A stretch of 5,348 nucleotides of DNA from a virus (taxonomy: Duplodnaviria; Heunggongvirae; Uroviricota; Caudoviricetes). Both the position numbers and the translations under genes were made by a program. Position 1 is the stretch's first letter, and each line of letters begins with the position of its first letter. Below, one piece after another: positions 1 through 5,348 of this stretch. Location: IMG/VR virus record IMGVR_UViG_2695420602_000001; one strand, given 5' to 3'. Under the pieces are notes generated by a model. It was not told where the DNA came from. It worked only from the letters and a program-made list of their open reading frames with translations, and did not search any database.

Positions 1-356
1 TTGCTGATTACGTGCAGCTTTCCCTTCAGGCGGGATTCATACAGCGGCCAGCCATCCGTCATCCATATCACCACGTCAAAGGGTGACAGCAGGCTCATAA
101 GACGCCCCAGCGTCGCCATAGTGCGTTCACCGAATACGTGCGCAACAACCGTCTTCCGGAGACTGTCATACGCGTAAAACAGCCAGCGCTGGCGCGATTT
201 AGCCCCGACATAGCCCCACTGTTCGTCCATTTCCGCGCAGACGATGACGTCACTGCCCGGCTGTATGCGCGAGGTTACCGACTGCGGCCTGAGTTTTTTA
301 AGTGACGTAAAATCGTGTTGAGGCCAACGCCCATAATGCGGGCAGTTGCCCGGCAT
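1..356 (-). CDS. insB: IS1 InsB, partial (N-terminal ~118 codons; C-terminus lies beyond window start). Expressed naturally as the InsAB' fusion by -1 frameshifting.
   Basis: Minus-strand ATG at 354-356 begins MPGNCPHYG..., and the window start corresponds to ...[10 protein letters not shown] of InsB. No stop codon before the window edge. Confidence 0.85.
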
Positions 357-550
357 CCAACGCCATTCATGGCCATATCAATGATTTTCTGGTGCGTACC
401 GGGTTGAGAAGCGGTGTAAGTGAACTGCAGTTGCCATGTTTTACGGCAGTGAGAGCAGAGATAGCGCTGATGTCCGGCGGTGCTTTTGCCGTTACGCACC
501 ACCCCGTCAGTAGCTGAACAGGAGGGACAGCTGATAGAAACAGAAGCCAC
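275..550 (-). CDS. insA: IS1 InsA (transposition repressor / N-terminal part of the InsAB' transposase)
   Basis: 91-aa [25 protein letters not shown]...[10 protein letters not shown], with the zinc-finger-like CxxC...CxxC N-terminus and helix-turn-helix typical of InsA. Confidence 0.95.
293..299 (-). other. IS1 A6C programmed -1 ribosomal frameshift motif (AAAAAAC) at the insA/insB overlap
   Basis: Plus strand gtttttt at 293-299 is AAAAAAC on the minus strand, located just upstream of the insA stop codon (275-277), as in canonical IS1. Confidence 0.8.
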
Positions 551-582
551 TGGAGCACCTCAAAAACACCATCATACACTAA

Positions 583-605
583 ATCAGTAAGTTGGCAGCA
601 TCACC
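583..605 (-). repeat. IS1 left terminal inverted repeat (IRL, 23 bp)
   Basis: Plus strand reads atcagtaagttggcagcatcacc, the reverse complement of the IS1 terminus GGTGATGCTGCCAACTTACTGAT. Confidence 0.9.
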
Positions 606-802
606 CATCCGGCACTGACAGTTTACTGAAAGGATATTTCCCTGAAAAGTCAGACCATAACGCGAAAGCGCACGGCGAGGTAGCTGGTTCATAGATAGCC
701 TGTCGTTAAATTTTCGTCGACCGTGCGCTTCCGGTTGTGGCAACCCGCGAAATGGCGCGGCGGTAAGTATGGCGGGGTTATTCCTTCCCCGTTGAGGACA
801 CC

Positions 803-839
803 GGGTTGTCAGGTTGACCATACGCTTAAGTGACAACCC
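803..839. other. Perfect 9-bp inverted repeat (GGGTTGTCA / TGACAACCC) with 19-nt loop inside an ORF-poor segment; candidate RNA hairpin or protein-binding palindrome
   Basis: 803-811 gggttgtca is the exact reverse complement of 831-839 tgacaaccc. Neighbouring short palindromes at 733-745 (ggttg-tgg-caacc) and 746-759 (cgcg-aaatgg-cgcg). Confidence 0.3.
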
Positions 840-879
840 CGCTGCAACGCCCTCTGTTATCAATTTTCTGGTGACGTTT

Positions 880-922
880 GGCGGTATCAGTTTTACTCCG
901 TGACTGCTCTGCCGCCCTTTTT
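880..922 (+). terminator. Candidate rho-independent terminator (imperfect stem followed by T5 run)
   Basis: ggcgg (880-884) pairs with ccgcc (912-916) and cagt (888-891) with actg (903-906); followed by c-ttttt (918-922). The stem is interrupted by an asymmetric internal loop, so this is weak. Confidence 0.25.
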
Positions 923-1015
923 AAAGTGAATTTTGTGATGTGGTGAATGCGGCTGAGCGCACGCGGAACAGTTAAAACCAAAAACAGTGTTATGGGTGGA
1001 TTCTCTGTATCCGGC

Positions 1016-1058
1016 GTTAATTGTTAACTGGTTAACGTCACCTGGAGGCACCAGGCAC
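1016..1058. promoter_or_regulatory. Operator-like cluster of palindromes upstream of the small-ORF/exonuclease operon: tandem GTTAAC sites (1023-1028, 1031-1036) and CCTGG-N5-CCAGG (1041-1055)
   Basis: Palindromes read directly from the sequence, ~40-70 bp upstream of the ORF at 1092. No convincing sigma70 -35/-10 pair could be assigned by eye. Confidence 0.25.
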
Positions 1059-1091
1059 TGCATCACAAAATTCATTGTTGAGGACGCGATA

Positions 1092-1280
1092 ATGAAAACG
1101 TTATTACCAAACGTTAATACGTCTGAAGGTTGTTTTGAAATTGGTGTCACTATCAGTAACCCAGTATTTACTGAAGATGCCATTAACAAGAGAAAACAAG
1201 AACGGGAGCTATTAAATAAAATATGCATTGTTTCAATGCTGGCTCGTTTACGTCTGATGCCAAAAGGATGTGCACAATGA
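1092..1280 (+). CDS. Small hypothetical prophage protein (62 aa), first gene of the putative operon
   Basis: ORF MKTLLPNVNTSEGCFEIGVTISNPVFTEDAINKRKQERELLNKICIVSMLARLRLMPKGCAQ. GAGGA (1080-1084) sits ~8 nt upstream of the ATG at 1092. The longer ORF-track start at 987 overlaps the operator-like region and lacks an RBS. Stop overlaps the next start (ATGA). Confidence 0.5.
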   Translation: MKTLLPNVNTSEGCFEIGVTISNPVFTEDAINKRKQERELLNKICIVSMLARLRLMPKGCAQ

Positions 1281-1468
1281 ATTCAGCATTTGTGCTTGTT
1301 CTGACAGTTTTTCTTGTTTCCGGAGAGCCAGTTGATATTGCAGTCAGTGTGCACAGGACAATGCAGGAGTGTATGACTGCAGCAACCGAACAGAAAATTC
1401 CCGGTAACTGTTACCCGGTCGATAAAGTTATTCACCAGGATAATATCGAAATCCCGGCAGGTCTTTAA
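1277..1468 (+). CDS. Small hypothetical prophage protein (63 aa) with N-terminal hydrophobic segment (signal peptide or membrane anchor) and two Cys
   Basis: MNSAFVLVLTVFLVSGEPVDIAVSVHRTMQECMTAATEQKIPGNCYPVDKVIHQDNIEIPAGL. AAGGA lies 7 nt upstream of the ATG at 1277. The ATG overlaps the upstream TGA stop (1278-1280), implying translational coupling. ORF-track start at 1223 is an in-frame upstream extension. Confidence 0.55.
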   Translation: MNSAFVLVLTVFLVSGEPVDIAVSVHRTMQECMTAATEQKIPGNCYPVDKVIHQDNIEIPAGL

Positions 1469-1561: not shown

Positions 1562-4033
1562 ATGAGTAAAGTCTTTATTTGCGCCGCTATTCCTGACGAA
1601 CTGGCAACAAGGGAAGAAGGCGCTGTGGCTGTAGCCACAGCCATTGAAGCTGGCGACGAACGCCGTGCTCGAGCAAAATTTCACTGGCAGTTCCTGGAAC
1701 ATTATCCGGCTGCTCAGGACTGCGCTTATAAATTTATTGTCTGCGAGGATAAACCTGGCATACCCCGCCCTGCCCTCGATTCATGGGATGCTGAATATAT
1801 GCAGGAAAACCGCTGGGATGAGGAGTCTGCTTCTTTTGTCCCGGTTGAGACTGAATCCGATCCGATGAACGTCACTTTTGACAAGCTGGCCCCTGAAGTA
1901 CAGAACGCTGTCATGGTTAAGTTCGACACATGTGAAAACATCACCGTTGATATGGTTATTAGCGCACAGGAATTGTTGCAGGAAGACATGGCAACATTCG
2001 ACGGACATATCGTTGAAGCGTTGATGAAAATGCCAGAAGTTAACGCCATGTATCCGGAGCTTAAGTTGCACGCCATTGGGTGGGTTAAGCATAAATGTAT
2101 TCCTGGTGCTAAATGGCCCGAAATTCAGGCAGAGATGCGCATCTGGAAAAAACGTCGCGAAGGTGAACGCAAGGAAACCGGAAAATACACGTCTGTTGTT
2201 GATCTCGCCCGCGCCAGAACCAATCAACAGTACACTGAAAATTCAACAGGAAAAATCAGCCCGGTCATTGCTGCCATTCATCGCGAATACAAGCAGACAT
2301 GGAAAACACTGGATGACGAACTGGCCTACGCTCTCTGGCCTGGTGATGTGGATGCCGGAAACATTGACGGCAGCATCCATCGCTGGGCAAAAAAAGAAGT
2401 TATCGACAACGACCGCGAAGACTGGAAGCGTATCTCGGCATCAATGCGCAAACAGCCTGATGCCCTTCGCTACGACCGCCAGACTATTTTTGGCCTTGTC
2501 CGTGAGCGTCCGATCGACATTCACAAAGATCCCATAGCACTGAACAAATATATCTGCGAATACCTGACGACAAAGGGCGTGTTTGAGAATGAAGAAACAG
2601 ACCTGGGCACTGTTGATGTTCTCCAGTCATCAGAAACACAAACTGATGCAGTGGAAACTGAGGTATCTGATATCCCAAAAAATGAAACCGCGCCGGAAGC
2701 TGAACCATCTGTAGAGCGTGAGGGGCCGTTCTATTTCCTCTTCGCAGATAAGGACGGAGAAAAATACGGTCGCGCAAACAAACTTTCTGGTCTGGATAAG
2801 GCACTGGCTGCTGGCGCCACTGAAATCACAAAAGAAGAATATTTTGCCCGAAAAAATGGCACATACACGGGCTTACCGCAAAATGTAGATACCGCTGAAG
2901 ATTCAGAACAACCAGAGCCGATAAAAGTTACCGCTGACGAAGTAAACAAAATTATGCAGGCAGCCAATATCAGCCAGCCTGACGCCGATAAGTTGCTTGC
3001 TGCATCACGTGGTGAATTTGTTGAAGGGATTAGTGACCCGAATGATCCGAAATGGGTTAAGGGGATCCAGACCCGCGATTCTGTGAACCAGAACCAGCAT
3101 GAATCGGAACGGAACTACCAAAAAGCGGAACAAAACAGCACAAATGCGTTACAAAACGAGCCAGAAACGAAACAGCCTGAACCAGTGGCGCAACTGGAAG
3201 TGGAAAAAGTCTGCACCGCCTGCGGTCAGACCGGCGGCGGCAACTGCCCTGATTGTGGCGCGGTGATGGGCGACGCAACATACCAGGAAACATTCGATGA
3301 AGAGTATCAGGTTGAAGTTCAGGAAGATGATCTGGAGGAAATGGAAGGCGCTGAACATCCACACAAGGAGAACACTGGCGGCAATCAGCATCACAATAGC
3401 GATAATGAAACTGGCGAGACGGCAGATCACTCAATTAAGGTGAACGGTCATCACGAAATCACATCCACCAGCAGGACGTGTGACCATCTAATGATCGACC
3501 TTGAAACCATGGGAAAAAATCCTGATGCCCCGATCATCTCAATAGGTGCAATATTTTTCGATCCGCAAACCGGAGATATGGGACCGGAATTTAGTAAGAC
3601 TATCGATCTGGAAACTGCTGGCGGAGTCATTGATCGGGACACCATTAAATGGTGGCTTAAGCAATCACGCGAAGCGCAATCTGCCATTATGACCGATGAA
3701 ATCCCGTTAGATGATGCACTGTTACAATTGCGGGAATTTATCGACGAAAACTCCGGTGAATTTTTTGTTCAGGTTTGGGGAAATGGAGCCAACTTCGACA
3801 ACACGATTTTGCGCCGTTCATACGAACGGCAGGGGATCCCCTGCCCGTGGCGTTACTACAACGATCGCGATGTACGCACAATCGTTGAGCTGGGGAAAGC
3901 CATAGACTTCGATGCCAGAACGGCTATTCCATTCGAAGGTGAGCGCCATAATGCACTTGATGACGCCCGTTACCAGGCAAAATACGTTTCAGTTATCTGG
4001 CAAAAACTGATCCCGAGTCAGGCTGATTCTTAA
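1562..4033 (+). CDS. RecE-like exodeoxyribonuclease VIII family protein (823 aa): N-terminal region of unknown function, acidic low-complexity linker, CxxC-x9-CxxC zinc-ribbon motif, C-terminal DEDDh-type 3'-5' exonuclease domain
   Basis: Long uninterrupted ORF with GAGG 10 nt upstream. Residues ~474-600 (DADKLLAASRGEFVEGISDPNDPKWVKGIQ...CTACGQTGGGNCPDCG...) match what I recall of the central region of Rac RecE. The C-terminal ~180 aa carry DEDDh motifs: MIDLET (Exo I), VWGNGANFDNTIL (Exo II), HNALDDARY (Exo III, H-x4-D). Confidence 0.85.
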   Translation: MSKVFICAAIPDELATREEGAVAVATAIEAGDERRARAKFHWQFLEHYPAAQDCAYKFIVCEDKPGIPRPALDSWDAEYMQENRWDEESASFVPVETESDPMNVTFDKLAPEVQNAVMVKFDTCENITVDMVISAQELLQEDMATFDGHIVEALMKMPEVNAMYPELKLHAIGWVKHKCIPGAKWPEIQAEMRIWKKRREGERKETGKYTSVVDLARARTNQQYTENSTGKISPVIAAIHREYKQTWKTLDDELAYALWPGDVDAGNIDGSIHRWAKKEVIDNDREDWKRISASMRKQPDALRYDRQTIFGLVRERPIDIHKDPIALNKYICEYLTTKGVFENEETDLGTVDVLQSSETQTDAVETEVSDIPKNETAPEAEPSVEREGPFYFLFADKDGEKYGRANKLSGLDKALAAGATEITKEEYFARKNGTYTGLPQNVDTAEDSEQPEPIKVTADEVNKIMQAANISQPDADKLLAASRGEFVEGISDPNDPKWVKGIQTRDSVNQNQHESERNYQKAEQNSTNALQNEPETKQPEPVAQLEVEKVCTACGQTGGGNCPDCGAVMGDATYQETFDEEYQVEVQEDDLEEMEGAEHPHKENTGGNQHHNSDNETGETADHSIKVNGHHEITSTSRTCDHLMIDLETMGKNPDAPIISIGAIFFDPQTGDMGPEFSKTIDLETAGGVIDRDTIKWWLKQSREAQSAIMTDEIPLDDALLQLREFIDENSGEFFVQVWGNGANFDNTILRRSYERQGIPCPWRYYNDRDVRTIVELGKAIDFDARTAIPFEGERHNALDDARYQAKYVSVIWQKLIPSQADS

Positions 4034-4391: not shown

Positions 4392-5219
4392 ATGAAATAT
4401 CCGACAGGCGTGGAAAACCATGGAGGGAAATTACGTATCTGGTTTGTTTATAAAGGCGTAAGAGTCAGGGAAAATCTGGGGGTTCCTGACACAGCAAAAA
4501 ACAGGCGCGTTGCAGGTGAACTACGCGCCTCTGTTTGTTACGCAATAAAAACTGGTGTTTTCGACTATGCAAAACAGTTTCCCTCCTCACGCAATCTGGA
4601 AAAATTTGGTGAGGCCCGACAAGATTTAACCATAAAAGAACTGGCTGAAAAATTTCTGGCACTGAAAGAAACTGAAGTCGCAAAAACATCACTCAACACA
4701 TACCGTGCCGTCATCAAAAATATCCTGAGCATAATCGGTGAAAAAAATCTTGCCTCATCGATTAATAAAGAAAAATTACTGGAGGTTCGTAAAGAGCTAC
4801 TGACTGGATACCAGATCCCCAAAAGTAACTATATTGTTACACAACCAGGGAGATCGGCTGTAACTGTAAATAATTACATGACAAATCTTAACGCCGTGTT
4901 CCAGTTTGGTGTTGATAACGGTTACTTGGCAGATAACCCGTTTAAGGGGATCTCGCCATTAAAGGAATCAAGAACCATTCCGGATCCTCTTTCGCGGGAG
5001 GAATTCATCCGTCTTATCGATGCGTGCAGAAATCAGCAAGCCAAAAATTTATGGTGTGTTTCTGTTTATACTGGCGTTCGCCCTGGTGAGCTGTGTGCAC
5101 TTGGATGGGAGGACATAGATCTGAAAAATGGAACAATGATGATCAGGAGAAATTTAGCAAAAGACCGTTTCACGGTACCAAAAACACAGGCGGGAACCAA
5201 TCGGGTCATTCATCGGTAA
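4392..5219 (+). pseudogene. int: Lambda/Rac-type tyrosine integrase, 3'-truncated by IS1 insertion (~275 of an expected ~400+ codons; catalytic H-x-x-R and Tyr region missing)
   Basis: Translation MKYPTGVENHGGKLRIWFVYKGVRVRENLG... resembles the N-terminus of IntR-type integrases, and TGVRPGELCALGWEDIDL carries the first catalytic Arg box. The ORF ends at TAA 5217-5219, which lies inside the IS1 terminal repeat GGTAATGAC starting at 5215. Probable start is the ATG at 4392 (GAGAAG RBS) rather than the ORF-track ATG at 4377. Confidence 0.85.
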
Positions 5220-5237
5220 TGACTCCAACTTATTGAT
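5215..5237 (-). repeat. IS1 right terminal inverted repeat (IRR, 23 bp)
   Basis: ggtaatgactccaacttattgat at 5215-5237 forms an imperfect inverted repeat with the IRL at 583-605. Confidence 0.9.
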
Positions 5238-5348
5238 AGTGTTTTATGTTCAGATAATGCCCGATGACTTTGTCATGCAGCTCCACCGATTTTGAGAACG
5301 ACAGCGACTTCCGTCCCAGCCGTGCCAGGTGCTGCCTCAGATTCAGGT
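5230..5348 (-). CDS. insB: IS1 InsB, partial (C-terminal ~39 codons; start lies beyond window end)
   Basis: Minus-strand reading ends ...[15 protein letters not shown] with stop (tta on plus strand) at 5230-5232, matching the InsB C-terminus. Confidence 0.85.

Follow-up and report, generated by a model that had tools for sequence, protein, structure and literature searches.

What does the stretch of DNA between a partial IS1 element and the first credible gene of this viral sequence encode, and what has the IS1 insertion done to it? The window, that is, the whole stretch analyzed here, comprises 5,348 nucleotides of a Caudoviricetes virus record (IMGVR_UViG_2695420602_000001). A sequence-only reading, made from the letters and a list of open reading frames (ORFs), had singled out positions 721-922 as a GC-rich, hairpin-dense, ORF-poor segment, and had proposed a small structured RNA, a cis-regulatory RNA element, or a recombination/packaging site. 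The first of these options was right, in that the segment carries DicF (76.7 bits), a name the reading did not offer. Specifically, we conclude with high confidence that what was flagged is a dicF locus, belonging to a Qin-like lambdoid prophage, and that it holds the 53-nt, Hfq-dependent DicF together with the stretch that precedes it in the 190-nt precursor. The hairpins ahead of DicF belong to the precursor and its processing and lie outside the mature sRNA. As for "GC-rich", the description holds only mildly: 721-922 has a GC content of 0.56, IS1 one of 0.54, and the prophage portion of the window one of 0.465.

By the measure of its sequence, the element is DicF itself and not just DicF-like, given its score relative to the Rfam threshold, its identity to the E. 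coli K-12 gene, its terminator, and the synteny downstream. The Infernal/Rfam covariance search that had been suggested for the region returned DicF (RF00039, gathering score 48 bits) on the plus strand at 866-917, at 76.7 bits and E = 3e-16, aligned across the full model (1-52 of 52). When the entire window was scanned against Rfam with a permissive cutoff (E up to 1), DicF and a sub-threshold STnc100 were the only hits, leaving 721-865 unmatched. Against K-12 MG1655 (NC_000913.3), positions 606-1100 differ at 2 positions and 721-922 are 100% identical. This stretch corresponds to the untranslated ydfC-dicB spacer of the dicBF operon in the cryptic Qin prophage of K-12, whose annotation lists dicF (b1574), a 53-nt ncRNA, between ydfC and dicB; via the alignment, this gene falls on 865-917 of the window. 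The stem and T5 tract at 880-922, read earlier as a plus-strand terminator, is indeed the Rho-independent terminator of DicF. The sRNA alone folds at -15.9 kcal/mol and the Rfam structure line agrees with the terminator stems; a simple terminator scan missed them because the loop exceeds 8 nt. The other landmarks of the reading held as well: the IS1 boundary at 605 is borne out by insA on the minus strand and by a match of 520-605 to an annotated IS1-family transposase in E. coli genomes, and the first credible ORF, placed at 1092, is DicB (Pfam PF05358, 136.8 bits). The coordinates of all features are collected in Table 1.

Table 1. Features of the dicF region and its flanks in the window, with the basis for each assignment.
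Feature	Position	Strand	Basis or remarks
IS1, partial at window edge	1..605	-	IRL end at 605; insA 275-550 on the minus strand
Stem A, 22-bp interrupted helix with a hypervariable apical loop (~680-716)	655..740	+	Fold, inverted repeat, covariation
Stem A pairs	655-661/734-740, 663-664/732-733, 666-675/721-730, 676-678/717-719		
5' domain of the 190-nt precursor	734..848	+	RNAalifold consensus (78 sequences) and constrained fold
5' domain helices (predicted)	Closing 734-741/841-848; hairpins 746-749/756-759, 771-777/787-793, 803-811/831-839		
Weak hairpin, AUUUUC loop with the candidate RNase E site	855..876 (855-862/869-876)	+	RNAalifold and constrained fold
dicF, mature 53-nt DicF sRNA, identical to K-12 b1574	865..917	+	RF00039, K-12 annotation
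Rho-independent terminator of DicF	880..922	+	Stems 880-886/910-916 and 888-891/903-906, then U918-922
Stem B, 20-bp long-range helix 926-945/1055-1074 enclosing the dicF-dicB spacer	926..1074	+	Fold, variants
dicB, cell-division inhibitor protein, downstream gene of the dicBF operon	1092..1280	+	Pfam PF05358, 136.8 bits; K-12 synteny
ydfD (DUF1482; lysis protein in the K-12 annotation)	1277..1468	+	Pfam PF07358, 91.1 bits

The locus is common. Of 5,426 complete E. coli genomes, 4,712 contain positions 606-1091, at a median of two places per genome, and many lambdoid phages match as well. The gene order ydfA-ydfB-ydfC-[spacer]-dicB-ydfD-exonuclease-xis-int is intact in strain CFSAN064036 and in phage Tritos, with dicA preceding ydfA, and in Tritos DicF is annotated within the spacer. 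Compared with the K-12 dicBF operon, the window has the whole 190-nt precursor and the mature sRNA in identical form, the same terminator and processing stems, and the same genes from the spacer rightwards (dicB, ydfD, a ydfE-type exonuclease, xis and int, with the excisionase and integrase confirmed by Pfam). It differs upstream, where IS1 at 605/606 stands in place of dicBp, ydfA, ydfB and ydfC. It differs downstream as well: the exonuclease gene (1562-4033), an IS2-truncated pseudogene (ydfE) in K-12, is intact in the window and encodes 823 aa, whereas the integrase of the window is cut by a second IS1. In the exonuclease, a Pfam domain was detected at residues 642-813 only (Rv2179c-like 3'-5' exoribonuclease, 226.5 bits), and the N-terminal ~640 residues matched no Pfam domain. 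Phage records label proteins of this type "exonuclease VIII".

The published biology of DicF in K-12 provides the frame into which the structures of the window can be placed. There, DicF is processed from a polycistronic transcript and no internal promoter was found (PMC10448788). A 190-nt species has its 5' end set by RNase III and its 3' end at the terminator, and Northern blots and primer extension showed it to build up upon RNase E inactivation and to vanish without RNase III (PMC10448788). The 53-nt form acquires its 5' end through RNase E (PMC10448788, PMC5069750) and ends at the Rho-independent terminator, while a 72-nt form arises from RNase III processing of read-through transcripts (PMC5069750). 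DicF requires Hfq; it engages the ftsZ and pykA mRNAs through its 3' region and the xylR mRNA through its 5' end (PMC5069750). This pairing blocks translation and causes filamentation and metabolic changes. Identity to K-12 suggests the same Hfq-dependent repression of ftsZ, xylR and pykA for the DicF of the window. In the intact K-12 operon, the transcript starts at dicBp, a pL-like, DicA-repressed promoter upstream of ydfA, and runs through ydfABC, the long untranslated spacer, dicF, dicB and ydfD. The transcript of ~150-250 nt ending near 922 that had been anticipated from the letters has its counterpart in the published 190-nt species of K-12, made from an identical sequence (PMC10448788).

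When these fragment lengths are transferred to the window, the processing sites would fall into recognizable structures. Counted back 190 nt from 917-922, the 5' end of the precursor would lie at ~728-733, inside stem A, so an RNase III cut, whose position here derives from the published lengths, would be expected on the 3' strand of that stem. The interval 721-922 would then be essentially the 190-nt precursor, and 728-733 matches the left boundary region drawn by the sequence-only reading. That interval approximates the published precursor well; it takes in one arm only (721-733) of a 13-nt inverted repeat within stem A, the partner of which (663-675) lies outside it. RNase E prefers AU-rich, single-stranded sites with a U two nucleotides downstream. 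A cut by this enzyme between U864 and U865, in the hexaloop of a weak, wobble-rich hairpin, would produce the mature 5' end, and the context there (A863-U864/U865-U866-U867) fits that preference. Within the precursor, this hairpin (855-876) would hide part of the 5' seed of DicF, which cleavage would free. Further, stem B is the likely second RNase III site: 72 nt counted forward from 865 lead to 936, in its 5' strand, so a cut there would generate both the 3' end of the 72-nt form, at ~936, and the 5' end of the dicB mRNA. DicF would thus be bracketed by two RNase III-type stems, A and B.

As a 96-nt stem-loop, stem A folds at -37.4 kcal/mol (z = -3.33) and contains a 13-nt inverted repeat (663-675/721-733). 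Relatives were gathered from IMG/VR, by two pattern scans, and from phage records, and among 64 non-identical sequences 21 of 23 tested positions stay paired, the exceptions being the outermost pair, 655/740, and 665/731, which is unpaired in the fold. Within a diverse subset of 24 sequences, standard pairs make up 91.9% of cells, and offsetting the partner by 1-3 columns lowers this share to 27-45%. Four pairs changed on both sides in this subset, among them A667-U729 to G-C (with a G-U intermediate) and G674-C722 to U-A in Rac-type sequences; as the double changes stem largely from one lineage, the Rac type, they represent few independent events. The covariation score was reached by none of 500 shuffles. 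Stem A is thus supported by covariation across aligned Qin-, Rac- and Stx-type prophage sequences, and the compensatory changes that had been named as a check on the region are present in this stem (655-678/717-740) but not in the inner hairpins, including the 9-bp one. For the apical 35-40 nt (680-716), six or more unrelated versions occur between conserved arms in prophages that are otherwise 85-100% identical, which is the pattern expected if the helix rather than the loop is selected. The hypervariable loop itself could be a recombination breakpoint or reflect diversifying selection. With a double-stranded helix of about two turns at the expected 5' end of the 190-nt form, we infer that stem A is the RNase III substrate.

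For the hairpins between stem A and DicF, the picture is one of conserved sequence with little variation to learn from. The perfect 9-bp inverted repeat at 803-811/831-839 is present as reported (repeats of at least 9 bp arise in 1.7% of dinucleotide shuffles of 721-922), as are the palindromes at 733-745 (GGTTG TGG CAACC) and 746-759 (CGCG AAATGG CGCG), and the folding check that had been proposed gave -76 kcal/mol for 721-922 (z = -2.46 vs. shuffles). RNAalifold on 78 sequences recovered the closing helix 734-741/841-848, the hairpins 746-749/756-759 and 805-811/831-837, and a short inner helix that single-sequence folds lengthen to 771-777/787-793. Across 645-925, none of the 63 consensus pairs showed double-sided changes among 78 non-identical homologues (covariation term, -0.48), and these homologues are too similar for that to either back or refute the inner helices (742-865). 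It is thermodynamics and conservation (84-100% identity among homologues over 734-848) that argue for the predicted helices within 742-848. Part of this domain behaves as a unit: positions 742-829 (88 nt; three hairpins, the 9-bp one represented by its 5' arm) are absent from Rac-SA53 and phiSTEC1589-Stx1c and form a discrete module that is present or absent among relatives and highly conserved where present. The motif GGTTGT occurs at 733-738 and again at 804-809, with its complement at 833-838, and its recurrence around 742-829 suggests an insertion with partial duplication.

Might this Qin-type domain (~734-848), absent in the Rac and Stx1c types, be a regulatory RNA in its own right and not only ballast? 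Its conduct as a discrete, well-conserved module speaks in favor, and we nevertheless regard the idea as a long shot. A specific version, to which we accord an equally slim chance, has the GGCGCGGCGGUAAGUAUGGC tract (754-773) and the 5' half of the terminator vying for one partner, the terminator's CCGCC-containing 3' half (900-917); if true, the 190-nt region would be an RNA switch setting the ratio of terminated DicF to read-through dicB mRNA. The unconstrained minimum free energy fold of 730-922 does pair 754-773 with 900-917, at -69.6 kcal/mol compared with -68.9 kcal/mol for the modular fold that keeps the terminator, so the two are essentially isoenergetic. However, natural variation shows no compensatory change for this pairing, and where position 917 is substituted (C to G or A, 14 of 78 sequences), its partner at 754 stays unchanged. 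Further, folding kinetics during transcription should favor the local terminator hairpin, the 193-nt fold reaches a z-score of just -1.88, and the K-12 studies explain termination and processing without such a switch (PMC10448788).

Two more radical readings, in which the segment is not an RNA element at all, fare worse still. That it is the remnant of a protein gene disrupted by IS1 would require one of two existing ORFs to be real, a 94-aa frame on the minus strand (579..863), which is, as described, the sole long ORF and runs into IS1, and a 36-aa frame on the plus strand (723..833). Neither matched Pfam. A 1-nt indel in the C-run at 786/787, found in ~40% of 78 non-identical homologues, frameshifts both, other indels in homologues also frameshift one or the other, and the substitutions lack a codon pattern. 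The minus-strand ORF moreover takes its start from IS1 sequence, and the curated K-12 annotation has no CDS at this position. The coding hypothesis was therefore rejected on its Pfam-negative ORFs and frameshifting indel polymorphism, and we give it next to no credence; by the same evidence (Pfam-negative ORFs, frameshifting indels in homologues, no curated K-12 CDS), the earlier statement that 606-1091 has no convincing coding frame stands. The scenario that the sequence-only reading had set against its own proposal, with 606-900 as the 3' part of an IS1-disrupted gene, likewise fails, as the site of IS1 corresponds, in intact loci, to intergenic sequence 81 nt beyond the ydfC stop. A DNA-level recombination, packaging or attachment site appears just as remote. 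The density of inverted repeats, and nothing else, favors it, whereas the segment is part of an early leftward-type operon, with the immunity region on one side and xis-int on the other, which is not where cos, pac and attP lie. The repeats map onto RNA helices with wobble-tolerant, strand-specific variation (G-C to G-U), and RNA products have been documented experimentally in K-12 (PMC10448788). Genomic position and an RNA-type variation pattern thus leave the recombination/packaging option raised earlier without support, and the dicF locus, with its precursor, is the reading we retain.

Downstream of DicF, stem B belongs to a fold with z = -4.26, and its pairing is kept in natural variants, with U.G, C-G or U-A at 941/1059 and a change from U-A to G-C at 936/1064. 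The sequence around it resembles the STnc100/PasD family (RF02076), which is prophage-associated (bioRxiv 10.64898/2026.05.13.724894). Positions 915-1124 align with that model end to end, including its outer long-range stem, and score 34.4 bits (relatives, 30.8-43.8 bits); as the gathering score is 47 bits, the region is not filed as a member. In contrast to a free-standing sRNA gene, the region in the window is the dicF-dicB spacer and the dicB leader. A leader with stem B also precedes kil in Rac- and Stx-type phages.

That last correspondence is part of a broader pattern among relatives, which shows the dicF region to be a mosaic of shared modules. Rac-type and Stx phages (Rac-SA53, phiSTEC1589-Stx1c and Shigella phage 75/02 Stx) carry DicF-like terminator hairpins upstream of kil, and the module order that they have in common with the window is stem A, a GGCGG...CCGCC-U5 hairpin, an STnc100-like leader with stem B, and a small division-inhibitor gene. 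Individual modules come and go within this order. Rac-SA53 and phiSTEC1589-Stx1c keep stem A without 742-829, while Shigella phage 75/02 Stx and the Actinobacillus phage pPE4 record keep the module of the 9-bp hairpin but not stem A. All four of these distant relatives keep the GGCGG...CCGCC-U5 hairpin and the leader with stem B, placed before kil instead of dicB. The hairpins of Rac-SA53 and phiSTEC1589-Stx1c, the only two that Rfam detects, score 35.6-41.1 bits against the DicF model, below its gathering score.

Two records with non-enterobacterial host labels also contain an E. coli-like dicF region. In "Actinobacillus phage vB_Apl-pPE4" (PP818812.1), it spans 1501-1915 at 81% identity, with the DicF-like hairpin and the start of the leader tandemly duplicated; in Aeromonas phage AP1 (MT713136.1), identity is 98.7%. 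These labels may reflect misassigned hosts or chimeric assemblies.

With respect to biogenesis, DicF has company. Other sRNAs are reported to be released from longer RNAs by RNase E, RNase III or both (PMC9438474; for RNase III, PMC8687705 and PMC11745405). DicF appears to be like them in being matured endonucleolytically from a longer or polycistronic RNA with a terminator-defined 3' end, and it differs in its place in mid-operon, between coding genes and flanked by two RNase III stems.

What, then, has IS1 done to this locus? In the intact locus L003, ydfA-ydfB-ydfC occupy the place where the window has IS1. Its insertion point is 81 nt beyond where ydfC would stop (L003 position 4919, compared with a match start at 5001) and 50 nt upstream of stem A, and the ydfC-dicB spacer of the window is 81 nt shorter than in intact loci. 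IS1 thus landed in non-coding DNA, which is why gene disruption does not apply to 606-900. The processing signals and DicF are intact, but the sole known promoter, dicBp, was removed together with ydfABC. A consensus promoter scan of 500-1300 found no plus-strand site and a single one at 598-571 on the minus strand, facing away from dicF. An internal promoter feeding dicF after the IS1 cut was considered and rejected, since the scan was negative and K-12 experiments found none (PMC10448788). With dicBp lost and no plus-strand promoter-like site in the scanned interval, the dicF copy of the window is probably silent, or else depends on read-through for its expression.

The 4.6-kb dicF-dicB-ydfD-exonuclease-xis-int' segment lies between two directly oriented IS1 copies (1-605 and 5216-5348). 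The pair gives a composite-transposon-like layout, with the integrase truncated at 5215 by the second copy. No match to the left junction turned up among 5,426 complete E. coli genomes or among GTDB species representatives. For the right junction, the GTDB species representatives likewise gave nothing, and E. coli yielded only split, non-equivalent matches. Given their absence from the genomes searched, the insertion appears to be lineage-specific. In a separate viral record, IMGVR_UViG_2690316210_000010, another IS1 end, independent of the one in the window but in the same orientation, interrupts the apical loop of a Rac-type stem A (minus strand, ~174-189). Taken together, the two records indicate that IS1 has struck the spacer between promoter and division inhibitor at least twice.

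DicF was first described in the late 1980s, its 190-nt, 72-nt and 53-nt forms date from 1990, and they were re-confirmed in 2023. The dicF locus and its 190-nt precursor are therefore already known and not a new element, and the discovery value of finding them here is small, as DicF and its three RNA forms had been published. What our analysis adds is a coordinate-level account, in which two covariation-supported stems, the likely RNase III substrates, bracket the sRNA and the probable RNase E site sits in an AU-rich loop, together with evidence for a mosaic of modules common to Rac- and Stx-type phages. It further adds a case in which IS1 has cut a toxic division-inhibitor cassette off from its promoter, and the independent insertion in the second record hints that such promoter disconnections recur.
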